Origin: a virus
Taxonomy: Duplodnaviria > Heunggongvirae > Uroviricota > Caudoviricetes
Virus record (IMG/VR): IMGVR_UViG_3300020202_000067
Location: 17,335-81,334 of that record
Reading direction: 5' to 3' (one strand)
DNA length: 64,000 nucleotides
In this document: positions 3,014 to 61,489 of the stretch, one piece after another
Position numbering within the stretch: the first letter of the stretch is position 1
Layout of the letters: every line of letters begins with the position of its first letter
Translations under genes and position numbers: made by a program
The notes under the pieces: generated by a model
What the model was told of the DNA's origin: nothing
Seen by the model: only the letters and a program-made list of their open reading frames with translations
Database searches by the model: none

Positions 3014-3631
3014 ATGAACAAGCGATTTGAAATTCCTCGCAATGCGATGTGCATGTCAGATCCGATGCCGTTCTCGCAGCACTGGGAAGTGCGCGTGTCG
3101 ATCCCGTTGGAAGACATTGACAACATGGGCGCTGCATTGCAGAATGGATACTCTTCCTTCCGTGCAGGCGATTTGATCCATGTTTGCTCATTCGATAAGC
3201 CAGACTGGAAACGGCTCAAGGAACTAGCAAGCTATCGCGTTGTCTCTGTAGAGAACAATAAGATCGAAGTTGTTCAGGTCACCGAGATCATACGCGTTGC
3301 TGCTGCCAAGGAAATTGCAAATCCGTTGCACCATCTCAAGCTCGAGATCAGGCAAGTTGGTCGCTCTTGGCAAGTGGTCGATGAAAAAGGAAACATCATC
3401 GAAGCATTCGTCGAGGAGAAACAGGCTCGCGCATTCTTGGCCAGTAATCAGCCAGAACCAGAAGCCGAGAAGAAGGCTGCTGAAGATGATCGCTCCGGCT
3501 ATATTGTCCGTCGCGGCTTTCAGGGCAAAGGCATCGTGCAGAATGCCGCTGGCGAAGTCGTCAAGGAATTTCGTTCTGTCAAGGAAGCGGAAGAGTGGCT
3601 TGGAAAGAAGTCAGCTGAGGCCGCTGCTTAA
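3014..3631 (+). CDS. hypothetical protein with two YegP/DUF1508-like ~35-aa repeats in the C-terminal half
   Basis: 205 aa. Internal repeat 'W-VVDEKGNIIEAF..EKQARAFL' and 'GIVQNAAGEVVKEFRSVKEAEEWL'. Stop overlaps the start of the next gene (ATGA at 3631). Confidence 0.3.
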   Translation: MNKRFEIPRNAMCMSDPMPFSQHWEVRVSIPLEDIDNMGAALQNGYSSFRAGDLIHVCSFDKPDWKRLKELASYRVVSVENNKIEVVQVTEIIRVAAAKEIANPLHHLKLEIRQVGRSWQVVDEKGNIIEAFVEEKQARAFLASNQPEPEAEKKAAEDDRSGYIVRRGFQGKGIVQNAAGEVVKEFRSVKEAEEWLGKKSAEAAA

Positions 3632-4239
3632 TGACGACACAAACAGACATCGTCAATATAGCTCTCAGACGCATTGGCGCTAATCGCATTGACGATTTAG
3701 CCAAGAGCGGTTCCAAGGAAGCGATTGCGGCGCGAGACCTTTATGAGGAGGCGCGTCGCGATCTGCTCAATTTGCACAACTGGAACTTCGCCATTAAGCG
3801 AAGTCAATTGTCCGCATCATCAACAGATCCGACCTTTGGCTGGGATTACACTTATCCATTGCCAGAAGATTTGATCCGATTAGTTTCGGTTCACCCGCAC
3901 AATGACGATCACTCAATCGTTGATTATCGTCTTGAGTTTCAATCAAGCGATGATCGCGTGTTGGTGACTAATTCAAATCAGATTTACATCAGGTATGTTT
4001 GGGACATCGAAGATCCAAATCTGTTCAGCGCTTCATTCAGAGAAGCACTCGCTTGGCGCTTAGCCAGAGACTTGGCATTGGCACTTTCGAAGTCTGCTTC
4101 AGCGGCTGAGCTGGCTGACAAAGCTTACAGGCGCTCCTTGAGCCATTCGAAGTCCATCGATGGAATTGAGGACTATCCAGAGAAGATGGCAGAGGGCGAT
4201 TGGATCACCTCAAGGTTCCCTGACTATTCGAGGGCTTGA
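3631..4239 (+). CDS. tail tubular protein A (T7 gp11-like)
   Basis: 202 aa (T7 gp11 is 196 aa). N-terminus 'DIVNIALRRIG...DLYEEARRDLLNLHNWNFAI' parallels T7 gp11 'NDILASIG...[20 protein letters not shown]'. Followed by the large gp12-like gene, with 4-bp overlap. Confidence 0.6.
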   Translation: MTTQTDIVNIALRRIGANRIDDLAKSGSKEAIAARDLYEEARRDLLNLHNWNFAIKRSQLSASSTDPTFGWDYTYPLPEDLIRLVSVHPHNDDHSIVDYRLEFQSSDDRVLVTNSNQIYIRYVWDIEDPNLFSASFREALAWRLARDLALALSKSASAAELADKAYRRSLSHSKSIDGIEDYPEKMAEGDWITSRFPDYSRA

Positions 4240-7184
4240 TGGCAACTCCATTTCTTTCATCGATCAATTCTGGTGAATTCTCCCCGCGCATGGAAGCGCG
4301 GGTTGATTTCGAGCGTTACGCTAATGCGGCAAAATTGTGCCGCAATTTCATATTGTTTCCGCAGGGCGGCATCTCTCGTCGTCCTGGCACCAGATTTGTC
4401 AAGGAAGTTAAATCCTCTTCTCTATCTACAAAGCTCATCCCATTCGAGTTTTCTGAGGATGACTCTTACATCATCGAGGCTGGTAACAACTATTTCCGCT
4501 TTTATCGTCGTCAAGGAAGTCTCACTGTTGACGACACAGACGCAGCCGTCACAAATGGCACATTTGCCTCGAACATAACAGGATGGACGGACGCTTCGAC
4601 TGGCGGCGCTGCAATTGCTCATGACTCAACAAATCAACGTTTGCAATTGACTGGAACGTCAGGCGGTGTCGCCTGGGCTAGACAAACCATCTCGATTGGA
4701 GCCAGCCACACTGCAAAAGTGCACGTTCTGAAGTTTCGACTCGCCATTGCCGGTGGCGGGAAGATCGGTTTTCAAGTTGGCACTTCAAATACAGGATCTG
4801 AGGTTCTGAGCGAAATTCTCCTCGGAGAAGGAGAGCATTCAATCAGCTTCACTCCAGGCGCTACTTCGATCTCAATCCAATTTCGCAACACGAATTCTCC
4901 GGCACGCAATGGCTTCGTTGACAATGTTGAATTCATCGACAATGCAGCGCTTGAACTAGTCTCTCCTTATGCAACAGCAGACCTGGAAGATCTTCGTTAC
5001 TTCCAAGCTGCTGACGTTGTTTACGTCTGCCATCCAGATTATGCTGTTCGGAAGATCGAGCGCAGAGGGCATCGTAGTTGGTCCATTGTTCAAGCGTTCT
5101 TTACAGATGGCCCCTATCTTGAGACGCACAACGGCGATGATCTTGCAACTATGCAGCTCGTTTCCAACTCATTGTTCGAAAACGGGATGATAGGATGGAC
5201 CGACAATTCCACAGGCGATGGCTTCGTTGTATTCAATGAAGCTGGCAAATTTGCAGAGCTTGATCCTGGGACGACTGGCGGGACCGGGGTTGCCATACTG
5301 AGAACGAGCGCAACTGTTGTTACTAGCAAGAAACATGTCGCGCACATACTCGTGGTTGCTGCTGGACCAGTGACCGTCAAGCTCGGCAGCGCCGCTGGCG
5401 GCACGCAATATATTAACACGACGCAATATCCAGGCTGGTCGTCTTATGAGTTCACGACCTCCGGAACAACGTTGCATGCTGAATTTTCGCATAATGATTA
5501 TGACAAGGGCCGTGCAGGCATCGGCGGGTTTCAAGTTTACAGCGAGGACCATAGTCTTCTTGAAGCTAGTGCAACTACAGGATCCGTGACACTAACCGCT
5601 CTGGGCTTTTCTCCATTCACCTCAGCGGATGTCGGACGGCTGATTCGCATGGAATGGCCTGGACAAGAGGCTGGTTATGGAGTGATCACTGCTTATAGCA
5701 GCAGCACCTCTGTGACGCTGTTCGTGCTCAGAGCTTTAGCTTCAACGGCTCCAACTGAGTCATGGCGCTTTGGTGCTTGGGGTGGTGACCAAGGCTATCC
5801 AAAGGTGGTAGGGTTCTATGACGGACGATCTGTGTTTGCGAACACGGAAGCCAAACCCAACTCTCTGTGGATGTCGCAGTCAGGACAGATCGAGAATATG
5901 CGTCTTGATTCCTTCTCTGAAGGCGACCTAACAGCTCAGGATGATGATGCCATTTCAGTGACATTACGTTCTACAAAGATCAATCCAATTTTTTGGGTCA
6001 GTGGCCAGAAGAACTTGATGGTCGGCACTGCAGGCGGGCAGTGGGTCATTCGTTCCTCTGGAGCTGTGGTGACCCCCAGCGACATCTCTACCAAGCAGCA
6101 TGCTGCCGTGCCTTGCGCTGACACCAAGAATATCGAGATCAATCAAACCATTCTTTTCGCCGATCGCGCTCGCAGAGAGGTTCATGATCTTGGCTTCTCT
6201 TTGGAAGAGGACTCATTCCTCGCGACTGATTTGACGATCCTTTCAGATCATATGTTTACCTCTAAGCTGGAGGAGATGGTCTATCAGCGTAATCCGTATT
6301 CCATCATATGGTGCCGAAGAGAAGACGGCAGAATGGCGTCATTGAGTTACAACAAACAGCATCAAGTTCTTGGCTGGTCACAAACCGTTATTGGTGGATC
6401 ATTTGGTAGTGGAGACGCGGTTGTTGAAAGTGTAGCCGTCATCCCAGGAGCGAATGACGACACGCAAACGCACACTTCCGACGAGCGTAATGAATTGTGG
6501 ATGATCGTTAAAAGAACGATTAACGGATCAACCAAACGTTACATTGAGTTCATGGAATACTTCTTCGATGGTCCTTTGCGCGAAGATTACGACACGGAAG
6601 CCGAATGGCAAGCGGCAATGCGCACGCAACAGGAAGACGCCTTCTATGTTGACTGCGGTCTGACATATGACGGCTCTGCCACTTCAGTCATCACCGGCCT
6701 CGATCATCTTGAAGGGCAGACCGTTAGGATCTTGGCAGACGGAAAGATCCATCCAACAAGAATTGTTTCGTCTGGCTCCATTTCTTTGAATGAGCAAGTC
6801 ACCAAGGCGCAAGTTGGGCTTGGTTACAAATCACGTTATGAAAGTCTGAAGCTGGCACCGCCAAATATGGAAGGCGGGTCTGGTGTCGGCAAGGTGAAGA
6901 TTATCTCTGAAGTCGGGATCATTCTTCTTGACGCCACAACTTTCGATGTAACAACAGTTGAGTATGACGAAGAGCAGGGCCGTCGCCAGCACACGCTTTA
7001 TTCACAAGAATTCCTTCGCGACTACATGGACAGAGACGACGCCATTCCGCTTTTCTCCGGAGAGATCGCTCCGTCAACAGACGGCGTTTGGTCGCGCGAC
7101 TCACGCATTTATATCGAATGCGAACAACCTTTGCCGCTGACTGTTCTCGGCCTGGCTCCGCGCATGGAAGTAAGGGCTCAATAA
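4236..7184 (+). CDS. tail tubular protein B (T7 gp12-like), extended (982 aa)
   Basis: Large ORF directly after the gp11-like gene (conserved gp11-gp12 synteny). Beta-rich composition. Larger than T7 gp12 (794 aa), so likely carries extra surface domains. Confidence 0.5.
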   Translation: MMATPFLSSINSGEFSPRMEARVDFERYANAAKLCRNFILFPQGGISRRPGTRFVKEVKSSSLSTKLIPFEFSEDDSYIIEAGNNYFRFYRRQGSLTVDDTDAAVTNGTFASNITGWTDASTGGAAIAHDSTNQRLQLTGTSGGVAWARQTISIGASHTAKVHVLKFRLAIAGGGKIGFQVGTSNTGSEVLSEILLGEGEHSISFTPGATSISIQFRNTNSPARNGFVDNVEFIDNAALELVSPYATADLEDLRYFQAADVVYVCHPDYAVRKIERRGHRSWSIVQAFFTDGPYLETHNGDDLATMQLVSNSLFENGMIGWTDNSTGDGFVVFNEAGKFAELDPGTTGGTGVAILRTSATVVTSKKHVAHILVVAAGPVTVKLGSAAGGTQYINTTQYPGWSSYEFTTSGTTLHAEFSHNDYDKGRAGIGGFQVYSEDHSLLEASATTGSVTLTALGFSPFTSADVGRLIRMEWPGQEAGYGVITAYSSSTSVTLFVLRALASTAPTESWRFGAWGGDQGYPKVVGFYDGRSVFANTEAKPNSLWMSQSGQIENMRLDSFSEGDLTAQDDDAISVTLRSTKINPIFWVSGQKNLMVGTAGGQWVIRSSGAVVTPSDISTKQHAAVPCADTKNIEINQTILFADRARREVHDLGFSLEEDSFLATDLTILSDHMFTSKLEEMVYQRNPYSIIWCRREDGRMASLSYNKQHQVLGWSQTVIGGSFGSGDAVVESVAVIPGANDDTQTHTSDERNELWMIVKRTINGSTKRYIEFMEYFFDGPLREDYDTEAEWQAAMRTQQEDAFYVDCGLTYDGSATSVITGLDHLEGQTVRILADGKIHPTRIVSSGSISLNEQVTKAQVGLGYKSRYESLKLAPPNMEGGSGVGKVKIISEVGIILLDATTFDVTTVEYDEEQGRRQHTLYSQEFLRDYMDRDDAIPLFSGEIAPSTDGVWSRDSRIYIECEQPLPLTVLGLAPRMEVRAQ

Positions 7185-7616
7185 ATGCGTACAGCCCAAT
7201 TTGAAATTGAGCACATCGATCAATTCAAGAATTTCGCAGGACAAGAGAACATTGTTGTTGGCGCCAAGACAGAAGACTTCATTCATCTGAAAGATGGCGG
7301 TGCGTCTTATACCATATTCAATGATGATGATATTCCAATTGGATGCGGCGGATTGATAGAATGTCACAAGTATCGCGCCCTGGCTTGGTGTCTCTTTCAA
7401 CGCACGAATGATCCTGTGTCATTTGTTTATATTCACAAGATCGTTTCCAGGGTTATCAGAGACAGCAATTATCCTCGCATTGAGGCCTATGTTAATCCGA
7501 TGCTGCTTTCCTCTGTTAGGTGGATCAAGCAACTCGGGTTCAAGCTCGAAGTCTCCTATTATCCTTATTTCTTTGCGGATGGCACTGGAGCTTCGCTCTA
7601 TGCCATTATGAGGTGA
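7185..7616 (+). CDS. GNAT-fold (acetyltransferase-like) protein occupying the T7 gp13 position
   Basis: 143 aa (T7 gp13 is 138 aa) but not similar in sequence. 'IGCGGLIE' and C-terminal 'NPMLLSSVRWIKQLGFKLE' resemble GNAT motifs A/B. Starts 1 nt after the gp12-like stop. Confidence 0.35.
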   Translation: MRTAQFEIEHIDQFKNFAGQENIVVGAKTEDFIHLKDGGASYTIFNDDDIPIGCGGLIECHKYRALAWCLFQRTNDPVSFVYIHKIVSRVIRDSNYPRIEAYVNPMLLSSVRWIKQLGFKLEVSYYPYFFADGTGASLYAIMR

Positions 7617-7622
7617 AGAAGA

Positions 7623-8222
7623 ATGGCAATGCTCACGATGGGAGCAACTGTTGCTAGCGGCGTTGTCGGCGTTCTAGGCGCTCTGCAGAAAGGCAAAGCT
7701 GATGCCTTCAATGCGCAAGTAGAAGCCGAGAACCGCGCAAGGCAAGCGGATGCGCAGTCTGAAGCCGACATCTTCAATGCAAAGGTTGCCAGGCAGCTCG
7801 CTGAGTCTGAAACGCGACAAGGCGCTGCCAATGCGAAAGATTACCGACGCACCCAAAGCGCCCGTGCTGCCAGTCGCCGCGCAATTGTTTCAGCGTCAGG
7901 TGTTTCCATGGAAGGATCCCCGCTGCTGGTTGATGAAGCGATCTTCCAGGAAATTGAATTTGGAGCACAACGCATTGCTTTTGATTCGATGACCAAGTCG
8001 TCTCGTGCCAGAAACGCAGCCTCACTACTCGAACGTTCAGCATGGCACAATAAGGAAACAGCGCGCATCGCGCGTGAGACTGGACGCGCTAGCGTTGAGA
8101 ACATCCGCAAGGCTTCTTATCTTTCTGCCCTAGGCAGAGGTCTGTCAGGCTTTCTTGACACAAGCAAGGCAATAAATGAAATGGCGACACAAGCAGCTCT
8201 TGGCGGCGGAGGAGGAGGTTAA
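7623..8222 (+). CDS. internal virion protein (T7 gp14-like by size and position)
   Basis: 199 aa (T7 gp14 is 196 aa). N-terminal hydrophobic segment 'MLTMGATVASGVVGVLGAL', then Ala/Arg/Gln-rich helical protein, Gly-rich tail. ATGA-coupled to the next gene. Confidence 0.4.
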   Translation: MAMLTMGATVASGVVGVLGALQKGKADAFNAQVEAENRARQADAQSEADIFNAKVARQLAESETRQGAANAKDYRRTQSARAASRRAIVSASGVSMEGSPLLVDEAIFQEIEFGAQRIAFDSMTKSSRARNAASLLERSAWHNKETARIARETGRASVENIRKASYLSALGRGLSGFLDTSKAINEMATQAALGGGGGG

Positions 8223-10354
8223 TGGCTAATGAGCTTTTGACGCCTGCTGGAATTCAACGTCCTGGTCATGGCCAGGACCCTGGCGTTTCTATGCGCCCAT
8301 CAACGGTCCTTCTTTCGCCTGTCAGAGACCCGATGGGTGATGCGCTCAATGAGTTTTCTAGAGATCTGTCGGGCATTGCTGCCACATTCAAAGAACTATA
8401 TAAAACTCGTCAGGACGCGGAAGACAGATCATTTGTTGACAAATATCAACTTGAGTACAATAAGCGCGTCACTCCTATTGAAACGGACGCGCTCAATGGT
8501 CCTGATTCCAGCAAGCCAGACTTTGTGAACAAGCTGGATCAGCGCCTCGCTGAGACGCAGAATTCATTAATGGAAGAGTTGCTATCCAGCGGGCAGTTCA
8601 ATCCGAGCAAGAATGGCAAGGAGGCTGCAATTCGTGCAGCTATGCAATTGCGCATTGCAGCGGCTAGGCGTTCTGCTGTAACTGCGCACAACCAACGCGT
8701 TACTAGAGTTGTTGATGAGGCAACAGCGAATGTTGGAGAAGTGGCAAGGGCTTCTGGAGCAAGTGGAGAGTTGGATGCTGGCATAGACCGAGTTGACTCT
8801 ACCATTAAGTCTCTTGAGCGCGTTCTGCCTCCGGACAAATTGCGTGAACTGCAAAAGACAGCGCGTGAGCAAGTGGTGGAGAGCGTTGTTCGCTCTCATA
8901 TTGAGAGAGGCAATTTTGCTGCCGCTCGAATGCTGCTCGATCGCAATCGCGGCTATGCCGCCAACACGACGGAAGGTGCCATTGCCCAAGCTGCGGCCAA
9001 GCACGGAGTTGATCCAGCCTACCTTGTTGCGGCAGCGCGTGCTGAGTCTTCACTCGATCCTGGGGCGAAGCCAAGGGTCGATCCTGCAACTGGCAAGCGC
9101 CCGTCGAATGCGGCTGGCATTTTCCAAATGGTTCCGGAAACAGCCAAGCAATTCGGTCTTCCAGAAGACGCGTCCACAGCGCCGGTAGAGCAACAGATTG
9201 AAGCTGGCGCAAGGTTCGCGGCGCTCAATAAGAAGGTATTGCAGCAAGCGCTCAAGCGTGATCCAACGCCTGGCGAAATGTATCTTGCGCACTTCCTCGG
9301 TGCTGGTGATGCTGTTAAGGTGCTGACTGCGCCAAAGGATCTTAGCGGCAGAGGCGTATCTCTAGACGGCTTGGTCGGCAGCAAATCAATCGCTGCCAAT
9401 AAAGCCATCTTAGATGGCAAGACGACAGACGACGTTATTGAATGGGCGAACAGAAAAATGCTGGCAGCAGGTGCTGGCGGTTCAGCCAACTTCATCAAGG
9501 AAGACACGCGCATTGCATTGCTGTCCCAGCTTGAAACGCGACAGCACCAAATGGATGTTCGCGCTAGAGAGGAAGCAAATCGGCAGACCAAGCTGATTGG
9601 CGAAGCCTTCTTGAAAGAAGCATTCACACAAGCTAACAATGGAAGGCTCAGCCCAGATTATGTCGAGCAAATCAAGCCTTGGATTTCACCGACAGAATAC
9701 AAAGGTCTGCTCTCGACCTTGGGCAAAGAAGACAATATCGATGATCAAGCTGCGATCGTGGATCTGACCACGCGCATAGACACTGAAGATCCAAATGAGT
9801 TCATGACGCGTGCAACGGACTGGATGAACAAAGGCAAACTTAAGACCGGCACCTACACTGCGATGGTTCAGCGCAATCGCACAGCGTTCAGAGACGATCG
9901 TCCTGCCAGTCCGTTCAAGTCCGGTCGTGAACTTGTCAGCACCTCTTTGGATCCTGGCGCGCTGAGCACAGCCGGACCAGAGGCTACGCAACATATGCGC
10001 GTAGCCAGAGCAAATGCATTGATTGAATTTGACCAATGGATCGAAGCCAATCCGCAGGCCAAGCGCGAAGACATCATCAATGAGGCGCAAAACATTGTGC
10101 GTCGTTATGAGCCTGTGGCGCAAGAACGCATGAAGATGGCTATTGGACTTTCTCGCTATTTCGGAGACAAGTCGCGCAATGCCATTACGATGAAAGAAGT
10201 AGAAGATGCAGAATTGGCTCTGCATCGGGACATTGAGTCGGGAAGGCTCACGCCAGCGCAGCAAGGCTTTGAAATTCGCAAACTAAAGAACTGGCGCGAG
10301 ATCATTGCGCGTGAAACCGCGCTTAAGGCGCAGCAGCCTGGACAAAGGAAATAA
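8222..10354 (+). CDS. internal virion/ejection protein with soluble lytic transglycosylase (SLT) domain (T7 gp15/gp16-like role)
   Basis: 710 aa. 'AESSLDP...PSNAAGIFQMVPETAKQFGL' (~9050-9150) matches the SLT catalytic Glu/Ser and GLMQ-type motifs. Located between the gp14-like gene and the giant ORF. Confidence 0.65.
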   Translation: MANELLTPAGIQRPGHGQDPGVSMRPSTVLLSPVRDPMGDALNEFSRDLSGIAATFKELYKTRQDAEDRSFVDKYQLEYNKRVTPIETDALNGPDSSKPDFVNKLDQRLAETQNSLMEELLSSGQFNPSKNGKEAAIRAAMQLRIAAARRSAVTAHNQRVTRVVDEATANVGEVARASGASGELDAGIDRVDSTIKSLERVLPPDKLRELQKTAREQVVESVVRSHIERGNFAAARMLLDRNRGYAANTTEGAIAQAAAKHGVDPAYLVAAARAESSLDPGAKPRVDPATGKRPSNAAGIFQMVPETAKQFGLPEDASTAPVEQQIEAGARFAALNKKVLQQALKRDPTPGEMYLAHFLGAGDAVKVLTAPKDLSGRGVSLDGLVGSKSIAANKAILDGKTTDDVIEWANRKMLAAGAGGSANFIKEDTRIALLSQLETRQHQMDVRAREEANRQTKLIGEAFLKEAFTQANNGRLSPDYVEQIKPWISPTEYKGLLSTLGKEDNIDDQAAIVDLTTRIDTEDPNEFMTRATDWMNKGKLKTGTYTAMVQRNRTAFRDDRPASPFKSGRELVSTSLDPGALSTAGPEATQHMRVARANALIEFDQWIEANPQAKREDIINEAQNIVRRYEPVAQERMKMAIGLSRYFGDKSRNAITMKEVEDAELALHRDIESGRLTPAQQGFEIRKLKNWREIIARETALKAQQPGQRK

Positions 10355-10358
10355 TTGA

Positions 10359-13300
10359 ATGGCTCCTCCGATTAAGACACCGTTCCCGGTTGCTGATTAC
10401 GCTGATCAAAATCCGACGACCATGGACATCCTCAAACAGAACGAGGAACAGATCGAATTGGCTAATGAAGGGCTAATTCCGCCGAAGAGCATGGCGGAGG
10501 AAATTGCTCCACAATTAGATGAGCTGCGTGCTTCTGAAGTCCGTCAGGCTTCACTGACTCCTGAGGACATTTTCATTCCTCCAAGCAATCCAAAAGAAGA
10601 CGACATCGCCTCGCAATATATTCAGATGGCGCAAGCACGCGACAATGACTCTGCCATTGAAGAGTTCAAGGAGCGTATGCGTGCGCGAGCGTCCACAATA
10701 GCTCCTAATGGACGACCGATGCTGCCAAATGCAGATGGGTCTGTCTCAACAGAAGAGAGCATCACGATAACAGATCCACGCATCAATGGCGGAGCACCAA
10801 CGAACATTCCTAGCATTTGGGGAGGACAGCGTCCTCCTTATAATGCTGGAACGCCTGAAGCGGAAAATTGGGCTGTTGAGAAAGCACTTGAGTCCAAGCA
10901 GCGCTTCCAATCGTATCGCTCAATCGAAGATGCTGTACAAGCCGCGCGTCAGCGCTCTTTGGAGTTAGGCAAAGCCATTGAGCGTGGCCGCCTTGAACAG
11001 CGCAGCGAAGTGAAGAAAGCTACCGACACCATCAATGCGATGGAGTCATTGATCGCGGGCAAGCCTATTAAGTCCGTGACAGAAGCGCAATCCATGACTG
11101 AACTTTTCGACATCATCATGGAACATGCTCAGAAGACTAATTGGTCTGATGCGCCTGGCGCTGTTGCCAAGGATATTGGCAAAGGCTTCTTCGTTGAAGG
11201 CGTTCCGCAGGCTGTCGGTGGCGTCAATCTGGCAGTCAAGAATACTTCACGCGCGTTGGCCGGTCTGGCTGATTGGATGACAACGAATGTTGGCGGTGAG
11301 ATCCCCGTTCCGTCAACAGGTAATAAGAAACTTGACCAAGCAATACAGCGCCCACTCGATTTCATCACCGAGTTGCTGCCTGGCGATGAAGGCATTAAGA
11401 AGGCGGAAACATTTACAGGCATCTTCATTAAGGAAGGTGCGCGCTTCCTCACCGGCTTCATCCCGCTGTTCCGTGCAGGTAAGGCGGCCGGAGCTGGCAA
11501 TATAACCACATCTATCGCTGCCGGCAGTCTGACTGATGCGATCACGCAAACGCCTGAAGAGCCGAACCTTTCTAATCTGATTGAGAAGGTTCCGCCGCTC
11601 AGAAACCCGGTGACGGAGTTTCTTGCCACAGACCCCAATGATCCTGAAGCCCTCAATCGCCTGCGTCAAGGCATTGAGGGCGCTGGCATGGGCGTTCTCA
11701 CAGAAGGTTTGCTCTGGGGAATACGCGCATTGGCCAATGCCCGTAAGGCAGTGCCAGAGCTTGAAGCGCAACGGCAATTGCATGGCGAGGTTGGTGACGG
11801 AACGGTTGTTGCTGCAACCAAGGACGAGCCTTATACCGCAGTTGGTGGAGCCAGTGCTAAAAACCCCTTCGTGCTCGACCTGACCTCAGAAGTGGCAAGA
11901 GAGGAAACTGAGCGTCGCCTGCGGGCGATCTTGACGGGACAAGCTGATGGGCCGGTGATAAAGCCTTCAACACGCCCGCTACAGGATGATTCCTTTGGCA
12001 CACGTATTGAAAAGGAAGAGGTGTTAGGCCTCATCGAGCGCAAGGCGCGGCCAGAAGAGATCTCTGCCCATCCGCTGATTCGCCGCGCAATGGAGCGACA
12101 GAAACGAGATCTTGAGGCGCCACAGATCAGGATTGAAGACATCACTCCTGAACATCGCGCGCAGCGCAAATTTGACTTTAATGGCGAGGAGGTCGTCGGT
12201 TACGACAAGGCCGTGCCGCGCCTTGCGGCTAATGCAGAAGCTTATGCTGGCTCTAACGGCGCCGCTGCGAATAAAGAAGCCATTATCCTCCTCGGCCCAC
12301 CTGCCGCTGGCAAAACAACCATTGGCGACAAGCTCGCGCGTGAGCTCAGATATGCCGTTGTTGATGCAGATGATGTGAAGGCCACGTTGCCCGAATATGC
12401 CGGTGGCGTAGGATCGACGCGCGTGCATCCGGAAAGCACGTTGATCAATGCCATGGTTCTTGAGGAGCTGGCGCGTTCCGGCAAGAACATGGTGATTCCG
12501 AAGCTCGGTCACGGCTCAGAACCAATAGTTGCCTTAGTACAAAAACTCAAGGAGCTTGGATACACGGTTGATGTCGTCAATGTTCGGATGGACGCTGAAG
12601 AAAATTACCGTCGGATGATCTCTCGGTTCATTCACACTGGCCGATTGATTGAGGAGAACTACTTTAAGCAGATCGGAGACCTTCCGACACAGACTTATGA
12701 ACGCCTCAAGAGAGAAGGATTGGTACGTGAAGCAGCCAACTACGATAACTCAACAGCAGCTCCAAAGCGCCTCGAAGCCTCAGAGCGGCTCGCAGCCGCA
12801 ATCGAGAGATCCGGAGGAGGTGGAGACGCAGCTTCAATTGGAGGCGCTGGAGCGCGCCAAGCGCCCCCGCAAATAGAGCGTCTGCGACAGGCCGCTGAGC
12901 CTGTTTACAATGACATGCTGGCGCAGCTCCGCGCCACTGGCATGAAGGAGGAAGAGGCTCTCGCCAATGCTGCTGTCGTGGCTGCACGCTATGCGGCGCG
13001 CGCCGAACGGCTAGGCACCGGCAAGACGGCGATGGATCTCTACAAGGAGTCAGGCCTGCGTGTCGAGCGGTCTGACGCTCCTCCGTCATCTGAGCGCTTC
13101 ATCGTCAATGCAGATGAACCGATGCCTTTCCGCCCAACCAAGGAGCAGACGCTTGAACAGCGTCGTGGTTGGTTTGGCACCGGTTACTGGATCAAAGATG
13201 GCAAACTGCACAAGATTGAAGAAGGCGCACTCGGTCCGCATGGCGATCATGATGGGTGGATCTCCATTGCCGATAATGCCAACAAGCTTGGAGTTGACGA

Positions 13301-16300
13301 AAAGAAATCTGCGGCTTTTCAAATTGCTACATATAATTTCGCGGATGCAAGCAAGAACAAGTGGGTTGACAAATTCTTCAAGAAGCATCCAGAATATGCA
13401 CAGGCCGCAGATGAAGGTACGCCGCTTCAAGACTTTGATTTCTTCGATAGCGACTTCAAAAAGTTTTTCGGAATGGAAGCGCACGAAGCGCTTGCTTGGC
13501 GTCCTGAAGGCATGTTCCGCATGCGCAAATGGCCTGATGGCCAACTCACCATCGACAATATTGATGCCATCAAGGACACTCGCAAATTCATTGAACAAGT
13601 CATGGCGCAGGAGCCGGAACTTCTCAATGGCGTCAAGAGGATCAGTGTCGCAAGCGCCAAGGATGATTCATACATCGATCTGACCGTTGAGCAATTTCTT
13701 GATGGCAAGTGGAAAGGCAAAGGCTACTCCTTCGAACAACGCGGCGCCGCTCCTCCTTTCTTCTCCGTCATAGACCGGGCCGTCGGTGGCGCCTCCTTCG
13801 ACAAGGGCTCGGCGGGCCAGTGGCTGGGGCTGTTGAAGAATACCGCAGGCGTCAAGCAAGAAGAGATCAAGTGGCGTGGCATCGACAAGTTCTTGGAAGA
13901 CCGCAAAGGCCAGATGGTCACCAAGGCAGAGATCGAGGAATGGTTGCGCATCTCTGAGGTGAAGATCAAGGAGATCAGGAAGGACAACGAAAAAGCTGGC
14001 TTCATCGATGAGGATGAAGTCATGGCTGAAGCTGACAGGATTTATCGGCGCTGGTCCAGTGGTGAAAATGTAACGGCCGACTACAGAGAAGTTGAGGCTG
14101 GCCCGAACATTGCCTTCGAAGTTATTGACAATCGCGGCATTGTTATTGAGAGGGTTTATTCTCCTGAAAGTGCTAGAGCGATCGCTGAAGATTTCAACCG
14201 TGCAATCAATGAACAAGATTTTGGTGCACTGGTAGATTGGAGCCAGATCGCTGCAGAACAGATTGCAAAGTCTGATGCAGCAGAAGTAACCCGCCACGGC
14301 ACTCACATCCTCCCCGGCCCAAACTCCAAGTACCGCGAGATCTTGCTGACTCTACCTGACAATGATCGTGTTGTTCCAAATCCTGCAAAAAGGGTTTGGT
14401 GGGTAGATGTTCCGGACAGTCCGGCACCGGCCATGGCCTTCAGCGAGGAACAGGTCGCACAAATTAGGTCTCGCTATCCGGAAGGAACTAATCTTCAGGT
14501 CAGGGAAGAAAACTTCACCGGCGTTGACGTCGCTGACAGCGGCGGCACCTTCCGTGTTGATGATCATTGGCACGAAGACAACGTGCTCGCGCATGCGCGC
14601 GTCACGGAGCGTGAGCTCGGCACCGGGCAGAAAGGCTACCAGTGGGTCAACACTGGTTCAGGCAACAAGAGTCAGATCTTTCCGTCATTGGAAGCGGCTA
14701 ACGGTTACTATTGGTCGCTGCCTGACAATCTGAAGTCACAGATCAAGCTTGCGCATGTCGAAGACCGCAAGGTCAAGACTCTCTTCATCGAGGAGATCCA
14801 GAGCGATTGGCATCAGCAAGGTCGCGAGCGCGGGTACAAGGAGCCGAATGCTAAAGCGGAGCATGAGCGCTTGACGCAGGCCCACAAAGATCTCATCCCG
14901 GAGATCAACAGAGTCATAGAGGAAAATGATCGTCTTGGATTTGATACCGTTCACGAGGCCAGAGGCGCGCTGTGGCGTGATGGAGTTGAGAGATGGGAAT
15001 TCAGCAAGCCAGAAGATCTTGAGATTGCCAAGAAGTACGTTGATGCTCTGAATGCGCTCAGAGAATTTGAAGCCAAGAAATCTGACAAAGCGGTTCCTGA
15101 CGCCCCGTTCAAGAAGAACTGGCATGAGCTTATGCTCAAACGCATGATCAAGCTCGCGGCTGATGAAGGCTATGACCAGATCGCATGGACCACGGGCAAG
15201 CAGCAGAATGATCGCTGGTCGCTGTCGCGTGAGCTGAAGCGCATTGAGTATGACGAAGCGACCAAGCAACTTCGCGCCACGCCAAAGAATGGACGTGAAG
15301 AACTGCACTGGCGCGATGTCGATGGCGAACGTCTGAAGGAGATCGTAGGCGCTGAGATGGCGCGGAAAATCCTGGAGACGCAACCTTCGTCAGTGAGGCA
15401 GGTTGCTCAGATCGAAAACGACATTGTCAAGTATGTCCGGGAATTCACTGGAGATGACAACTTCACCTTTCCTGCCGCCAATGAGCCTGGCAAATGGAGC
15501 ATTATAACTAATCTTGAGAGAAACAAGCCTGCGATGAAACGGCTTGTGCAAGAGTGGCAAGATGCTTCCAATGGCCGCCTTGTTGGCAAACGCATTCTCG
15601 AAGGAGAAGACCTTGAGCTAGGCGGCCAAGGCATGAAGTCGTTCTACGACCGCATGCTGGTCAACGCTGCCAATGATCTCGGCAAGCCGCACAAGGCGCA
15701 GGTGAAGCAGGGCGAGGTTGTTACGGGGCAGAGCCTCGAAACGGTGTTCAGAGGAGAAGCTCCGACTGCAGCGAAGTTGAATGAAGTGGTTGAAGACTTG
15801 CTAGACAAGCAGTCACAAGGCATTCTCACTGGCTTCTCCAGATCCGAAATTAAACATATTGCAATAATTGCAGACGCGATGGAGGGCGGGAAAACATTCG
15901 ATCAAGCGATGCAAGTGCATGGACTTGGGTCAACATACGCTCTCATGCAGAAAGTCGGTTACGATGTGGACATGCGGCCTGCCGTTAAAACCGAACCGGT
16001 CCACGTCCTAGAGATCACGCCTGAACTCCGCCGCACGGCGCGTGAGGATGGCTTTCGGTTGTTCCAGAACCCGCGTGGGTGGGAGGATGCACCCGGCGGG
16101 CCAGATTACTTTGGTCACCCAAAAGGCATCATCGACATCAAGAGCAATGAGGCTGTTGTCAAGCTGTTCCGCACGGCTGACGCTTCCACCTTCCAGCATG
16201 AAGCGGGTCACCTGTTCTTCTTCGAGCTCATGCGCGACGCCGCAATGGATGCAGCGCCCAAGCAGCTCAAGGACGACCTCGACACTGTCTTCCGCTGGCT

Positions 16301-19300
16301 GGGCGTGCAGGACGGCACCCAGCTCACCCGTGCGCACCATGAGCAATGGGCCAAGGGCTTCGAGCGCTACTTGGCAGAGGGCAGCGCGCCTTCACCCCAG
16401 CTCCAGTCCGCCTTCGAGCGCTTCAAGACTTGGCTGATTGAAATCTACCGGTCACTGACCTCCATTGGCGACAAGGAGATCACCGACGAGGTCAGGGGCG
16501 TGATGGATCGGCTGCTGGCCACTGACCCAGAATTGGCCTTGGCCGGGAAGGCACCGCTTGTTGGCCCAGCCGGGCTAACGGGCGACATCCTCGGTGCCGT
16601 GGTGCCCAGGTTGCAGGAGGCCGGGTTCGATGGCCTAGTGACCAAAAGCGTGGGCGGGAAGACCCGCGCCATGGCTCTTCCTGCCCAGCTAGCCGGGAGG
16701 GACAAGCTCGGCGCAGCCATGGAGGCCACCGAAACGGGCGTGCCCTCACAGGTAGTGGCCCAGGGATTGGTCGGCAGCGCGGAGGACGCCGCGAGCCGCG
16801 CAGGCATTGCGCGCGTGCTGCGGACCGATGACAGCCCGGTCGGGGCGACCGGCGAAGGTGCTATAGCACCGGGACCAGATGTCTATGTCAACTTCGGCCG
16901 TATCAATGAACCTGACGACGTCAAGCAGGTTATCCGCGACCTGGCAGACGCCTTCAAGGGCGAGATCAATGAAGCACGGCGCGGTGTGCAATCCAATGAG
17001 GAGACAATCAGACTGGCGGATCGCCTTGGCATGGGGGTTGACGAGCTGCTGCAGCGTCAGAAAGGTCAGCCCTTCAATGCTGAGCAAGCGCTAGCGGCAC
17101 GGCGGCTGTTGAACACGTCGGCAGAACAGCTTCTCGGCTTCGCGGAAAAAGCTGCGCTGCCGACAGCAACGCTTGCCGACCAATACAATTTCCGCCGCAT
17201 GCTCGCCGTGCATCAAGCGATCCAGACTGAAGTGATTGCGGCAAGAACAGAGACCGCGCGTGCACTTCAGTCCTGGGCGATCCCGGCTGGTGGCAATGTC
17301 GAGATGGCACGCAACATTCAACAACTCATCGATGGAGCTGGTGGCGCAAAAGTGACGCAAGAGCTGGCCAAGCGCATGGCCATTCTCAAGGCGCAAGGTT
17401 TGCCGCCTGCTGCCATTGACACTATGGTCAAACGTTCCTGGGCGGCTGTTTCTATGGACATGGTTAAGGAAGCCTTCGTCCTTGGCCTTCTGTGGAACCC
17501 CAAAACGCATGTCGCCAACTTCGCTTCCAATCTTGTCACCGCTGCGCAACAGGTTTACGAGCGTTCAGCCGCAAGAGCGATAGGAGACCTTCTCGGCACA
17601 GCAGTCAGTGGTTCACGCGTGGTTGATGGAGAGGCCATCGCCATGATGTATGGCTGGGTGACGTCGCTCAAGGACGCATTCCGCCTGGCAGGACGCGCTG
17701 CCGTCTATGGTGAAACAGGCCAAGCCATACCTGGCTCCAAGATGGACGAGCGCATTGGCGCGATCTCTTCTCGACACATTGCTGAATCACGTGGTTACTC
17801 TGCTGTTGAGACTCAACAGTTCGTCAGCTCAACAGCAGGGCGCGCCATCGACTTCATGGGAACAGTTGTACGTTTGCCAGGCAATGCTCTGGCAGCAGGC
17901 GACGAATTCTTCAAGACTATCGGCTATCGCATGGAGTTGCATGCACACTCTTTGCGGCAGGCGACAGACGAGGGCTATACTGGACCAGACTTGTGGAAGC
18001 GTATGATGGAGATCGTCAATGATCCTCCTGAGCACATTCGCATCGCGGCCGCCGACGCGGCGCTTTACGCGACATTCCAATCTAAGATGGGAGAGATCGG
18101 CACAGCAATCAGCATGGCGCGCAATGCTGGCAGCTACAATCCAACTTTCGCAGTGCTGCCATTCGTAAAGACGCCTACCAATATTCTGCGCTACACTTTC
18201 GAGCGCACGCCGCTTGCATTCCTTGTGAAGCGCTGGAGAGACGACATCGACGCTGGCGGCGCGCGGCGCGATCTGGCATTGGCTCGCATGTCAACTGGCA
18301 CTGCCATCATGGCTGTTGCTATGGACTTTGCAGCCAATGGACAGATCACCGGCACCGGTCCGCGCGAGCGCGGCCGCAAGGAAGCATTGATGCGCGACGG
18401 CTGGCAGCCATCCAGCGCTCTTGTTGATGGAAAATACTACTCCTTCAACCGTGGCGATCCACTTGCGATGCCGTTCACTGTCATGGGACAAGTCGCCGAG
18501 ATCATGCGTTCCAAGGATCTTGCACCAGAAGACTTTGATCAGCTTCAAGAGATCATGGGCGCGGCCATAGGCATCATGTCAACGACTGTTGTTGACAAGA
18601 CTTACTTCCAAGGCATTTCGCAGATCATCATGGCGATTGAGAGCTCAGAGAAAGGTTCTCAAGCTGCAGCCAATTGGATGAACCGCCAGGTCGGCGGCTT
18701 TGTGCCATTCTCTTCTGCGCAAGGAGTGGTGAAGCAATTCACGGATCCTGTGCAGCGAGAAGTCAACTCGATGTGGGATGGCATTCAGAACCGCCTGTTC
18801 TGGATGTCAGAAAATTTGCCCCCTGTTCGTGATCTCTGGGGCGAGGAGCGTAAGCCGGAAGAAGTGTTCGGTAAGGCTTATGATGTTCTGTCGCCAGCTC
18901 AGGTCACCAAACAGAAGGGCTCGCCCATTGATCAAGAGATCATTCGTCTTGGCGGCTCCATTGAGCGCATCAAGAAGAAGGGCGAATTCATGGGGGCTGA
19001 TGTCAACTTTTATGAATGGCCGAAGGTGTATGACGAATACGTGCGCCTCGCCGGCAATGAGCTCAAGCACCCTGCCTGGGGCGTGGGGCTCAAGGATCTA
19101 TTGAATCAGGTTGTTTCTGGCAAGCATGAGTTGTCTGAAGTCTACAACTTCATGTCGAATGGACCTGAAGGCGGAAAGATGGCATGGCTCAAGAATCAGG
19201 TTTCAGCTTATCGCCGTTTGGCGCAACAAGAGATTATGAACTCAGACAAGTTTCCTGAATTTGTTAATTACGTCAATACGCGCAGACAGCAACGGCAGGA

Positions 19301-19343
19301 GTTGAAGATGCCGCCCGAAATTCTCGAACAGATGAGGCAGTGA
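10359..19343 (+). CDS. giant (2994 aa) polyvalent internal virion/injected protein with zeta-toxin-like P-loop kinase motif and HExxH metallopeptidase motif
   Basis: Single uninterrupted ORF of 8985 nt with RBS (caaaggaaataattgaATG). Walker A 'LLGPPAAGKTT' followed by 'VVDADD' at aa ~646-670 (nt ~12294), zeta-toxin/AAA_33 kinase-like. 'FQHEAGHLFFFELM' HExxH at aa 1947-1951 (nt 16197-16211). Sits in the position of T7 gp16. Confidence 0.55.
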   Translation: MAPPIKTPFPVADYADQNPTTMDILKQNEEQIELANEGLIPPKSMAEEIAPQLDELRASEVRQASLTPEDIFIPPSNPKEDDIASQYIQMAQARDNDSAIEEFKERMRARASTIAPNGRPMLPNADGSVSTEESITITDPRINGGAPTNIPSIWGGQRPPYNAGTPEAENWAVEKALESKQRFQSYRSIEDAVQAARQRSLELGKAIERGRLEQRSEVKKATDTINAMESLIAGKPIKSVTEAQSMTELFDIIMEHAQKTNWSDAPGAVAKDIGKGFFVEGVPQAVGGVNLAVKNTSRALAGLADWMTTNVGGEIPVPSTGNKKLDQAIQRPLDFITELLPGDEGIKKAETFTGIFIKEGARFLTGFIPLFRAGKAAGAGNITTSIAAGSLTDAITQTPEEPNLSNLIEKVPPLRNPVTEFLATDPNDPEALNRLRQGIEGAGMGVLTEGLLWGIRALANARKAVPELEAQRQLHGEVGDGTVVAATKDEPYTAVGGASAKNPFVLDLTSEVAREETERRLRAILTGQADGPVIKPSTRPLQDDSFGTRIEKEEVLGLIERKARPEEISAHPLIRRAMERQKRDLEAPQIRIEDITPEHRAQRKFDFNGEEVVGYDKAVPRLAANAEAYAGSNGAAANKEAIILLGPPAAGKTTIGDKLARELRYAVVDADDVKATLPEYAGGVGSTRVHPESTLINAMVLEELARSGKNMVIPKLGHGSEPIVALVQKLKELGYTVDVVNVRMDAEENYRRMISRFIHTGRLIEENYFKQIGDLPTQTYERLKREGLVREAANYDNSTAAPKRLEASERLAAAIERSGGGGDAASIGGAGARQAPPQIERLRQAAEPVYNDMLAQLRATGMKEEEALANAAVVAARYAARAERLGTGKTAMDLYKESGLRVERSDAPPSSERFIVNADEPMPFRPTKEQTLEQRRGWFGTGYWIKDGKLHKIEEGALGPHGDHDGWISIADNANKLGVDEKKSAAFQIATYNFADASKNKWVDKFFKKHPEYAQAADEGTPLQDFDFFDSDFKKFFGMEAHEALAWRPEGMFRMRKWPDGQLTIDNIDAIKDTRKFIEQVMAQEPELLNGVKRISVASAKDDSYIDLTVEQFLDGKWKGKGYSFEQRGAAPPFFSVIDRAVGGASFDKGSAGQWLGLLKNTAGVKQEEIKWRGIDKFLEDRKGQMVTKAEIEEWLRISEVKIKEIRKDNEKAGFIDEDEVMAEADRIYRRWSSGENVTADYREVEAGPNIAFEVIDNRGIVIERVYSPESARAIAEDFNRAINEQDFGALVDWSQIAAEQIAKSDAAEVTRHGTHILPGPNSKYREILLTLPDNDRVVPNPAKRVWWVDVPDSPAPAMAFSEEQVAQIRSRYPEGTNLQVREENFTGVDVADSGGTFRVDDHWHEDNVLAHARVTERELGTGQKGYQWVNTGSGNKSQIFPSLEAANGYYWSLPDNLKSQIKLAHVEDRKVKTLFIEEIQSDWHQQGRERGYKEPNAKAEHERLTQAHKDLIPEINRVIEENDRLGFDTVHEARGALWRDGVERWEFSKPEDLEIAKKYVDALNALREFEAKKSDKAVPDAPFKKNWHELMLKRMIKLAADEGYDQIAWTTGKQQNDRWSLSRELKRIEYDEATKQLRATPKNGREELHWRDVDGERLKEIVGAEMARKILETQPSSVRQVAQIENDIVKYVREFTGDDNFTFPAANEPGKWSIITNLERNKPAMKRLVQEWQDASNGRLVGKRILEGEDLELGGQGMKSFYDRMLVNAANDLGKPHKAQVKQGEVVTGQSLETVFRGEAPTAAKLNEVVEDLLDKQSQGILTGFSRSEIKHIAIIADAMEGGKTFDQAMQVHGLGSTYALMQKVGYDVDMRPAVKTEPVHVLEITPELRRTAREDGFRLFQNPRGWEDAPGGPDYFGHPKGIIDIKSNEAVVKLFRTADASTFQHEAGHLFFFELMRDAAMDAAPKQLKDDLDTVFRWLGVQDGTQLTRAHHEQWAKGFERYLAEGSAPSPQLQSAFERFKTWLIEIYRSLTSIGDKEITDEVRGVMDRLLATDPELALAGKAPLVGPAGLTGDILGAVVPRLQEAGFDGLVTKSVGGKTRAMALPAQLAGRDKLGAAMEATETGVPSQVVAQGLVGSAEDAASRAGIARVLRTDDSPVGATGEGAIAPGPDVYVNFGRINEPDDVKQVIRDLADAFKGEINEARRGVQSNEETIRLADRLGMGVDELLQRQKGQPFNAEQALAARRLLNTSAEQLLGFAEKAALPTATLADQYNFRRMLAVHQAIQTEVIAARTETARALQSWAIPAGGNVEMARNIQQLIDGAGGAKVTQELAKRMAILKAQGLPPAAIDTMVKRSWAAVSMDMVKEAFVLGLLWNPKTHVANFASNLVTAAQQVYERSAARAIGDLLGTAVSGSRVVDGEAIAMMYGWVTSLKDAFRLAGRAAVYGETGQAIPGSKMDERIGAISSRHIAESRGYSAVETQQFVSSTAGRAIDFMGTVVRLPGNALAAGDEFFKTIGYRMELHAHSLRQATDEGYTGPDLWKRMMEIVNDPPEHIRIAAADAALYATFQSKMGEIGTAISMARNAGSYNPTFAVLPFVKTPTNILRYTFERTPLAFLVKRWRDDIDAGGARRDLALARMSTGTAIMAVAMDFAANGQITGTGPRERGRKEALMRDGWQPSSALVDGKYYSFNRGDPLAMPFTVMGQVAEIMRSKDLAPEDFDQLQEIMGAAIGIMSTTVVDKTYFQGISQIIMAIESSEKGSQAAANWMNRQVGGFVPFSSAQGVVKQFTDPVQREVNSMWDGIQNRLFWMSENLPPVRDLWGEERKPEEVFGKAYDVLSPAQVTKQKGSPIDQEIIRLGGSIERIKKKGEFMGADVNFYEWPKVYDEYVRLAGNELKHPAWGVGLKDLLNQVVSGKHELSEVYNFMSNGPEGGKMAWLKNQVSAYRRLAQQEIMNSDKFPEFVNYVNTRRQQRQELKMPPEILEQMRQ

Positions 19344-19773: not shown

Positions 19774-20024
19774 GCGATCCAACAAACAAGATCATGCACC
19801 TCAAGACGCCGAACTATCCGCAGTTCCGTTTTGAGTATCACCCATTCAAGAAGAAGGTCTACATCATACGCGTAGGCATCCTTCCAGAGATCGGTGAGGC
19901 ATTCGCGCATGAAATTGAAACCGAAGGCGCAGCGTGGAATGCTGCGCTCATCTGGCTACGTGGCTACAAGGAAGCAAAAAGGGAACTGAGCAATGTCGGC
20001 ATTGAAATCAAGATTGCGAGCTGA
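19770..20024 (+). CDS. hypothetical protein
   Basis: 84 aa ORF, overlap-coupled to both neighbours. Confidence 0.3.
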   Translation: MSDPTNKIMHLKTPNYPQFRFEYHPFKKKVYIIRVGILPEIGEAFAHEIETEGAAWNAALIWLRGYKEAKRELSNVGIEIKIAS

Positions 20025-21550: not shown

Positions 21551-21576
21551 CTGGACTCCTCCCAGGAGCAACTTGA

Positions 21577-21604
21577 CCCGCCTGCAAAGGCGGGTTATTT
21601 TTTG
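21577..21604 (+). terminator. rho-independent terminator at the convergence of the late (+) and early (-) operons
   Basis: cccgcc-tgcaaa-ggcggg stem-loop followed by ttatttttttg. The stop codon of the minus-strand gene 21595..21822 lies inside the T-tract. An A-tract precedes the hairpin on the opposite strand. Confidence 0.75.
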
Positions 21605-61474: not shown

Positions 61475-61489
61475 ATTGGAGCTGGCTCG

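Follow-up and report, generated by a model that had tools for sequence, protein, structure and literature searches.

A single gene in the 64,000-nucleotide stretch of the Caudoviricetes record IMGVR_UViG_3300020202_000067 that we analyzed (hereafter, the window) encodes a giant protein of 2994 amino acids (aa). By homology, its outer parts belong to a family of phage ejection proteins, while its middle holds approximately 1,700 aa of enzyme-type modules. We consider it likely that a podovirus, whose tail and core module is of the T7 type, uses this protein as its largest internal-core (ejection) protein, and that it brings the inserted modules into the host as polyvalent cargo by the mechanism proposed below. 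The protein is a new architectural variant of the polyvalent or ejected-effector theme, and not an N4-like RNA polymerase.

The open reading frame (ORF) list and the translation confirmed what a preliminary description of this DNA had reported, an uninterrupted frame of 2994 codons at 10359-19343, which opens with ATG. The start lies 5 nt past the stop of the preceding gene, with a Shine-Dalgarno-like AAGGAA 9 nt 5' of it. An assembly chimera is unlikely because the identical protein is found on three contigs of different sources (JGI, ENA, and Logan assemblies; the longest of 81 kb), and the same layout in four relatives of 2,624-3,080 aa shows that it is not an assembly artefact. Self-blast revealed no internal repeats. 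When the gene was compared by megablast with 50,697 phage records, none matched, and no close cultured relative is known. Searching the whole protein against PDB with phmmer gave only spurious matches to designed helical repeats and a weak adenylate kinase match. In a Pfam scan at E<=1 the protein matched Zeta_toxin and other P-loop families, plus DUF6074 below threshold (E 0.067), and nothing else. The gene and its parts are:

10359..19343 (+), giant gene, 2994 aa, gp16 slot of T7, predicted to be the last and biggest of three internal-virion (ejection) proteins
10440..10982 (+), variable module at the N-terminus, aa 28-208, no family-library match
11091..11996 (+), N-terminal scaffold piece, aa ~245-546 (core ~267-478; ARFLTGF at 361-367), matching aa 88-279 of the relative P0079 at 38% identity
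12018..12803 (+), P-loop kinase module of the Zeta-toxin family, aa 554-815 (matched by Pfam at 637-790)
12882..13100 (+), small helical element, aa 842-914 (~70 aa), placed by blastp coordinates
13692..16076 (+), large conserved module, aa 1112-1906 (~800 aa), predicted GNAT-like core roughly aa 1403-1640
16110..16562 (+), HExxH (zincin-like metallopeptidase-type) module, aa 1918-2068, phrog_9880 E 1.7e-51
16563..16865 (+), Ala/Gly/Pro-rich linker, aa ~2069-2169, from the translation and composition profile
16866..19328 (+), C-terminal ejection-protein domain, aa ~2170-2990, with DEFFKT at 2515-2520, PFVKTPTNIL at 2601-2610 and GWQPSS at 2681-2686

Alignments place aa ~267-478 and ~2170-2990 in a very large family of internal virion proteins of 1,100-1,500 aa. 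The C-terminal domain matched phrog_6651 ('internal virion protein', E 3.6e-45), and its profile aligned over 474 columns with Syn5 gp45, a gp16-slot protein (hhalign probability 99.8%, E 1.3e-29). A HMMER search of cluster representatives with aa 1880-2994 as the query retrieved 18,599 representatives when the cutoff was E<=1e-3 and 4,079 when it was E<=1e-30. The 150 best matches had a median length of 1,204 aa; nearly all of them aligned to the C-terminal domain with their own C-terminus, and only seven were at least 2,000 aa long. In tblastn against phage genomes, 106 records matched through 'internal virion protein (D)' genes of pelagiphages, roseophages, cyanopodoviruses, and Desulfovibrio phage ProddE (Autographiviridae), typically in two pieces, one near query aa 340-465 and the other within 2200-2990. 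Two of these proteins, compared with the giant protein by blastp (E 1.5e-39 for ProddE and 4.9e-25 for CRP-403), gave the following pieces:

ProddE internal virion protein D, 1268 aa: N-piece 178-301, C-piece 645-1142
CRP-403 internal virion protein D, 1221 aa: N-piece 172-298, C-piece 532-1198
Giant protein in the same comparison, 2994 aa: N-piece 337-465, C-piece 2276-2990

The closest relative of normal size, P0079 (1194 aa), aligns with aa 267-458 of the giant protein (38% identity) and with aa 2175-2985 (58% identity; aa 364-1177 of P0079). An ~85-aa linker in P0079 corresponds to ~1,700 aa in the giant protein. As read from these alignments, ~1,700 aa of enzyme-type modules are inserted between the two scaffold pieces. 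Four giant relatives, P0002 (2644 aa), P0076 (2624 aa), P0077 (3009 aa), and P0078 (3080 aa), have the insert in common. They show 52-58% identity over the C-terminal 1,115 aa and all retain the kinase motifs, the HExxH, and an EExQSDW motif, and P0002 occupies the same slot in a syntenic 82.6-kb contig. The preliminary description had found most of the protein unrecognizable, a view that has to be narrowed: the last ~820 aa and some of the N-terminal region belong to the conserved ejection-protein scaffold, and the middle ~800 aa are a conserved module with a GNAT-like predicted core.

The kinase module was where the preliminary description had seen a Walker-A and DxD signature of the zeta-toxin type. 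The string ILLGPPAAGKTTIGDKLARELRYAVVDADD is indeed present, with the Walker A at G646-T653 (K652) and VVDADD at aa 667-672, and the family assignment held. Pfam Zeta_toxin (PF06414) scored 53 bits over aa 637-790 (E 3.9e-14; gathering cutoff 22.3), AAA_33 also being above its cutoff, and a five-sequence profile searched against PDB found Zeta (1gvn_B, E 1e-6) and then PezT (2p5t_B, E 1.8e-4) as the best solved relatives. NCBIfam gave only generic kinase similarities, far below cutoffs. Key residues of the module are K652, D669/D671, R752, R756, and R762. In the alignment to Zeta, K652 corresponds to K46, D669/D671 to D65/D67, and R756 to R158. Asp67 of zeta is the catalytic base and hydrogen-bonds the 3'-OH of uridine diphosphate-N-acetylglucosamine (UDP-GlcNAc), while Thr118 and Arg120 contact the UDP phosphates (PMC3062530). 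The Walker A, DxD[DE], PE[YFM], VHEES, and R..R....GR motifs are retained in all five giant lineages, which argues for an active enzyme, and we infer that the module is an active zeta-fold phosphotransferase. Its substrate is probably other than UDP-GlcNAc, because Leu and His replace Thr118 and Arg120.

This kinase subfamily (~32% identity) is also found in 2,800-aa proteins with MuF_C, and the module matches PHROG 16619 ('minor head protein'), suggesting that virion association of this type of kinase is recurrent. An abundant giant family, P0041-P0058 (2,797-2,822 aa; one cluster comprises 228 member sequences), combines a Zeta_toxin kinase of the same subfamily with MuF_C. Its weak phage matches were to Bacteroides, Microbacterium, and Haloarcula viruses. 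We considered this family as the giant protein of Shiga toxin (Stx) phages and rejected it, as P0058 had no match in E. coli phages.

The HExxH module is the most widely shared piece of the protein, accounting for 40 of 75 first-round matches (30-57% identity). The string TFQHEAGHLFFFELMRD reported in the preliminary description was found, with HEAGH at aa 1947-1951. A lone HExxH is expected by chance in ~8% of proteins of this length, by a rough estimate. H1947, E1948, H1951, E1995, E2002, F2019, and Y2030 are invariant in 31 homologous modules (27-48% identity). An AlphaFold2 (AF2) model with a predicted local distance difference test (pLDDT) score of 86.5 shows a beta-hairpin followed by the HExxH helix (25-45) and a helix at 74-90 carrying both Glu residues, an order of elements that is the one given for polyvalent-protein metallopeptidases (PMC5512222). 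Foldseek against viral models (BFVD) found only pieces of proteins annotated as 'large polyvalent protein associated domain-containing', and similarity to solved zincins amounted to weak matches. Of the gluzincin assignment made earlier, the conserved catalytic-type motif therefore stands, and the gluzincin label, which fold comparison did not show, rests on motif conservation. The suggested check for Pfam MPTase-PolyVal found no match in this module, and the family was not among the families listed (25 of 39) for the 31 homologues, where LPD1 and SprT-like appeared weakly (E~0.1). The region just upstream of the module corresponds to the end of the LPD1 domain in P0059.

Between the kinase and the HExxH module lies a region absent from the preliminary description as a module, the core of which probably resembles GNAT acyltransferases, a call from a structure model that we hold with moderate confidence. 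The region recurs in more than 25 giant proteins (25-38% identity), in the company of ART-PolyVal, PBECR3/5, InPase, LPD38, ddrB-ParB, RadC, and GGDEF. Its motifs are F.S, GVK..E..W.G, PGG.NYRE, H..NVLAH.R, LF.EE.QSDWHQ.GR..GY, and GG.GM..FYD, together with VPDAPF..W.EL..KR...AA..GYD..AW..G..Q..RY.L, and its invariant polar residues are E1327, H1403, H1412, R1414, E1479, Q1481, S1482, D1483, K1594, R1595, and R1619. The AF2 model has a mean pLDDT of 69, with core blocks at 75-93. RERGYK, following the strand LFIEEIQSDW, is like GNAT motif A (Q/R-x-x-G-x-G/A) minus the final G/A. An hhalign comparison with a canonical GNAT (P0017) aligned only the RERGY stretch, at a non-significant probability of 0.35%, and the module had no Pfam match (acetyltransferases included), no PHROG match with a function, and no match of its profile to PDB sequences.

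Smaller pieces of the protein vary among its relatives. The module at aa 28-208 is common only to P0070, to P0071 ('LPD1 domain-containing protein' according to its source), and to the normal-size family member P0146. The helical element lies 3' of the kinase in the giant protein, in contrast to P0002 (419-494), P0076 (486-549), P0077 (450-510), and P0078 (393-472), where it lies 5' of it; this difference shows that the cargo modules have been reordered. Base composition gave no sign of recent acquisition, since the GC profile of the cargo equals that of its flanks. The sole peak (0.64 at 16400-16999, against ~0.52-0.56 around it) coincides with the linker that joins the HExxH module to the C-terminal scaffold, and is explained by the Ala/Gly-rich composition of that linker.

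Other members of the C-terminal domain family carry other cargo. For instance, P0208 has RelA_SpoT, ddrB-ParB, and RadC, P0012 has GGDEF, and P0218 shows a sub-threshold ART-PolyVal match right after the N-piece. P0006 consists of an HExxH module and the C-terminal domain, and is preceded by genes of 148, 197, and 821 aa (the last with SLT), so that it sits in the same slot. Its contig (L008, ENA contig k141_811755) also encodes an integrase and RecT (21991-22899 and 25839-26363), suggesting that cargo-bearing ejection proteins exist in temperate podovirus-like elements too.

The slot of the giant gene was read from its surroundings. It belongs to a rightward podovirus structural operon on the + strand, from ~500 to 21,550, which closes at a hairpin and T-run:

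508-1404 (+), major head protein
3631..4239 (+), tail tubular protein A, phrog_394 E 1.2e-50
4236..7184 (+), tail tubular protein B or nozzle, 982 aa, phrog_376 E 1.1e-176, weak match to Pfam Phage_nozzle
7185-7616 (+), gp13-slot internal virion protein, 143 aa, phrog_4177 and phrog_308 ('internal virion protein')
7623-8222 (+), gp14-slot internal virion protein, 199 aa
8222-10354 (+), gp15-slot protein, 710 aa, with a Pfam SLT domain at aa 254-332
21574..21597 (+), terminator-like hairpin and T-run from a pattern scan (10-bp stem with 6 GC pairs, then TTTTTTGT), a consensus match only

Tail tubular proteins A and B define a podovirus tail module, and the genes of the gp13 to gp15 slots (7185..10354) have PHROG 'internal virion protein' matches (phrog_308 and phrog_418). 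The preliminary description's placement of the giant gene in the gp16 slot, directly after an SLT-containing gene (8222-10354; Pfam SLT E 1.9e-8), agrees with what follows the capsid gene, a series of genes whose order and sizes parallel T7 gp11-gp16: 202-982-143-199-710-2994 aa against 196-794-138-196-747-1318 aa. As with gp16 of T7 and the corresponding proteins of Syn5, ProddE, CRP-403, and the pelagiphages (internal virion protein D), the giant gene is the last and largest core gene after gp13-, gp14-, and gp15-like genes. A 2022 review (PMC8954989) gives gp16-like proteins lengths of 609-1337 aa, which the giant protein considerably exceeds. T7 gp16 also differs in carrying an N-terminal lytic transglycosylase, whereas the Pfam scan found no SLT domain on the giant protein itself and the domain resides on the upstream 710-aa protein.

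Some observations on these neighbours stand apart from the giant gene. The SLT domain is on the gp15-slot protein, as opposed to the gp16-slot protein of T7; swapping of such domains between gp15- and gp16-like proteins is known, with a similar case in K1E and K1-5 (PMC8954989). The gp13-slot protein (7185-7616) has a weak Pfam GNAT match below cutoff (Acetyltransf_3, E 0.035) and may be a second acyltransferase-like virion protein. Tail proteins of this phage group also seem to accrete extra domains: tail tubular protein B has 982 aa here, 794 aa in T7, and 1,884 aa in its counterpart on the P0006 contig. Directly 3' of the giant gene, at 19348-20247 (+), are three small ORFs (141, 84, and 84 aa), for which a chaperone or immunity role is conceivable. 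The 141-aa ORF is phrog_644 (unknown function) and is kept after the homologue in a related contig (L001 17948-18847). Unlike in T7, no tail-fibre gene follows. These three ORFs had no functional Pfam or PHROG match and none was recognized as an antitoxin, a limited test given that antitoxins are small and diverse; by the same searches of downstream ORFs, no cognate antitoxin of the epsilon or PezA type was recognized next to the kinase gene. Beyond the operon, the opposite strand (21600-58000) holds replication and nucleotide-metabolism genes, followed by a + strand block at 58300-64000:

23594-25063 (-), helicase
28319-29242 (-), topoisomerase-like
40089-42929 (-), family-A DNA polymerase
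48836-49618 (-), thymidylate synthase
59165-61474 (+), primase

A tRNA scan of the window found none, and none of the scanned ORFs looked like a phage RNA polymerase. The phage genome, of ~81 kb, is about twice that of T7.

Three elements of this arrangement are already known separately: polyvalent proteins, ejection proteins that carry enzymes, and effectors with the zeta fold. The assignment to the polyvalent class made in the preliminary description was borne out on several grounds. The protein combines unrelated enzyme-type domains (the Zeta_toxin kinase, the HExxH module, and the GNAT-like large module) and is encoded among virion genes, inside the capsid-tail-core operon. In addition, its insert modules recur in giant proteins with ART-PolyVal, LPD22, LPD23, LPD38, PBECR3/5, InPase, ddrB-ParB, and MuF_C, so that by homology of segments it takes part in the same domain network. 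An HExxH metallopeptidase is the commonest hub domain of polyvalent proteins (Iyer, Burroughs, Anand, de Souza, Aravind 2017, J Bacteriol; PMC5512222). The same work describes polyvalent kinases of the Ser/Thr/Tyr type and two GNAT families that are RimI-like, whereas the kinase here is of the zeta type, and the terms 'zeta toxin', 'gp16', and 'internal virion' are absent from its text. Moreover, the cargo here interrupts a T7-module ejection protein, as opposed to being fused to MuF, a portal, or N4 RNA polymerase.

Precedents are found in other systems. In T7, a conduit across the envelope is assembled from gp14, gp15, and gp16 once these have left the capsid, and a segment in the C-terminal part of gp16, flanked by two putative membrane regions, has been modelled as a hub in the cytoplasm (PMC8954989). 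In N4 (Schitoviridae), the ~3,500-aa virion RNA polymerase gp50 is the third ejection protein and is described as the analogue of gp16; its enzyme remains tethered to the membrane and regains its fold in the cytoplasm (PMC13434306). It has been classed as a polyvalent protein with an HExxH domain (PMC5512222). The N4 cargo is an RNA polymerase, whereas here it is a kinase with GNAT-like and HExxH modules, and Pfam and PHROG detected no sequence relationship between the two. Mass spectrometry of virions detected gp47 of Stx phage phi24B (2,811 aa; LPD5, LPD1, LPD38, MuF-C), for which a role in ejection has been proposed (bioRxiv 10.64898/2026.04.10.717836). This gp47 is likewise a giant podovirus polyvalent protein, with a domain set and scaffold that differ from those of the giant protein. 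The epsilon/zeta and PezAT kinases, which are UDP-GlcNAc 3'-kinases, have in common with our module the Walker-A Lys and the equivalent of Asp67 (Asp66 in PezT), and differ in that the kinase here is embedded in a virion polyprotein with no antitoxin pair recognized. AvrRxo1, an injected NAD (nicotinamide adenine dinucleotide) 3'-kinase with the same fold and another nucleotide substrate (PMC5491322), shows that the zeta fold tolerates substrate shifts; it was not among the PDB profile matches of the kinase module. In the literature searched we found no relevant paper combining zeta toxin with ejection or virion proteins, no polyvalent cargo inside a T7-module gp16-slot scaffold or zeta-type kinase as such cargo, and no description of the ~800-aa GNAT-like module.

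The gene slot and these precedents lead us to infer, by analogy, that the giant protein is packaged and delivered with the DNA. It would be packaged in the capsid core and, at infection, leave through the tail once the gp14- and gp15-slot proteins had passed. The scaffold would then form that end of the DNA conduit which lies at the inner membrane and in the cytoplasm, and the inserted enzymes would thereby reach the host cytoplasm before any phage gene expression. There, the kinase would phosphorylate a nucleotide-like small molecule, not UDP-GlcNAc, and the GNAT-like module may acylate an unknown target. The HExxH module may cut the polyprotein to free the modules, autoprocessing being among the roles proposed for polyvalent metallopeptidases (PMC5512222), or may cleave a host protein.

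Several results weigh against this picture. No curated polyvalent Pfam domain (ART-PolyVal, MPTase-PolyVal, LPDn, or PBECRn) was found on the protein itself. When tail and core neighbours were compared with the T7, Syn5, ProddE, and CRP-403 loci, tblastn gave no match at E<=1e-3, meaning that these genes are too divergent for it and that 'T7-like' is valid only for profiles and gene order. T7 gp16 itself showed no similarity to the C-terminal profile (hhalign probability 0.1%), and this domain had no real relative of solved structure, only spurious designed-repeat matches (profile against PDB, with no T7 gp16 chain); the topology borrowed from T7 is for these reasons an analogy. A simple hydropathy scan (threshold 1.3) found no transmembrane-like hydrophobic segment. 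In the kinase, the residues that contact UDP-GlcNAc are not kept: zeta E116-G-T118-G-R120-T121 aligns to P-K-L-G-H-G, only the Gly of this stretch being conserved among the kinase relatives. Lastly, the GNAT call was made on the model of mean pLDDT 69, and sequence-level support was found neither by profile against PDB nor by hhalign against the P0017 GNAT.

The divergence of the UDP-GlcNAc contacts would also fit a polynucleotide (RNA or DNA 5'-OH) kinase or other nucleic-acid-end enzyme, acting in RNA repair against anticodon nucleases or in genome-end processing. Weak PHROG matches ('polynucleotide kinase' phrog_505, E 1.5e-4; 'kinase' phrog_10255) and the presence of Pnkp1 (4xrp, E 0.15) in the PDB profile list point the same way. 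We regard this as unlikely, given that Zeta_toxin is by far the best family, that Zeta and PezT score 5 and 3 orders of magnitude better than Pnkp1, that the NCBIfam similarities are to small-molecule kinases (shikimate, adenylate, homoserine), and that Pfam detected no phosphatase or ligase partner domain in the giant protein. A similarly small chance goes to an HExxH module working in the cell envelope, where it would cleave peptidoglycan peptides or an envelope protein so that the conduit reaches the inner membrane. Such an envelope role is what the phi24B authors propose for the gp47 metallopeptidase (bioRxiv 10.64898/2026.04.10.717836), and the N-terminal part of T7 gp16 works in the periplasm (PMC8954989). 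However, the gp15-slot protein already provides a dedicated SLT peptidoglycan hydrolase, and in other polyvalent proteins the HExxH module adjoins cytoplasm-acting domains (ART, GNAT, exonuclease-like). Phage cell-wall endopeptidases, besides, are usually M15, M23, or CHAP enzymes and not HExxH zincins. The autoprocessing role proposed for polyvalent metallopeptidases (PMC5512222) also speaks for a function other than in the envelope.

It could be argued, too, that the protein is a purely structural component of the conduit or core, its enzyme-like modules being relics without activity, or spacers occupying the larger capsid that goes with a genome of ~81 kb. The size of gp16-slot proteins varies widely, and a genome about twice that of T7 makes a larger core plausible. 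Yet catalytic-type residues are invariant across distant homologues, which makes inactive relics unlikely: the K, D, D, R, and R of the kinase in five lineages (~38-46% identity), the H, E, H, E, and E of the HExxH module in 31 sequences, and 11 polar residues in the large module. We judge a purely structural role quite improbable. To a disguised N4-like or crAss-like virion RNA polymerase, or a DarB-like methylase/helicase, we give practically no credence, as family and fold searches (Pfam, PHROG, NCBIfam) showed no polymerase, helicase, or methylase and the largest unknown module is GNAT-like. The checks for a DarB-like helicase/methylase or an ART domain that had been suggested with the preliminary description found neither in the protein (Pfam scan), and we rejected a virion RNA polymerase, a DarB-like methylase/helicase, and an ART-carrying protein as candidates, there being no supporting Pfam or PHROG match. 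The outcomes it had named as speaking against its own proposal did not appear either, with no RNA-polymerase signal and with neither motif seen to fall in a non-enzymatic fold.

If the giant protein is, as we favour, an ejection protein loaded with polyvalent cargo, a bolder generalization can be put forward, which we offer tentatively and think rather doubtful as a whole. The gp16-slot ejection protein might be a general chassis for enzyme injection, with an insertion hot spot just after the N-terminal conserved segment where lineages placed different cargo (a zeta-type kinase, RelA/SpoT, GGDEF, ART, or the cassette of GNAT-like and HExxH modules). The kinase might then be a first-strike effector, acting before transcription on a nucleotide metabolite or immune signalling nucleotide (NAD-like, UDP-sugar-like, or cyclic-nucleotide-like), and the ~800-aa module a new enzyme family of injected polyproteins.

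Proteins injected with the DNA precede phage gene expression, and are thus good candidates for acting against host defences that fire at DNA entry. To our knowledge, most polyvalent proteins have never been tested experimentally. The present family offers a clean comparison, in that the same scaffold exists with and without the ~1,700-aa cargo (the giant protein and P0079), and with RelA/SpoT, GGDEF, or ART in other members. The kinase combines a well-studied fold and obvious point-mutant controls (K652A, D671A) with a probably new substrate, and the large module is widespread in giant phage proteins while having no Pfam model. Finally, cargo lying between the two scaffold pieces should show on which side of the membrane that part of the protein comes to lie, which bears on the topology of gp16-type inner-membrane complexes.

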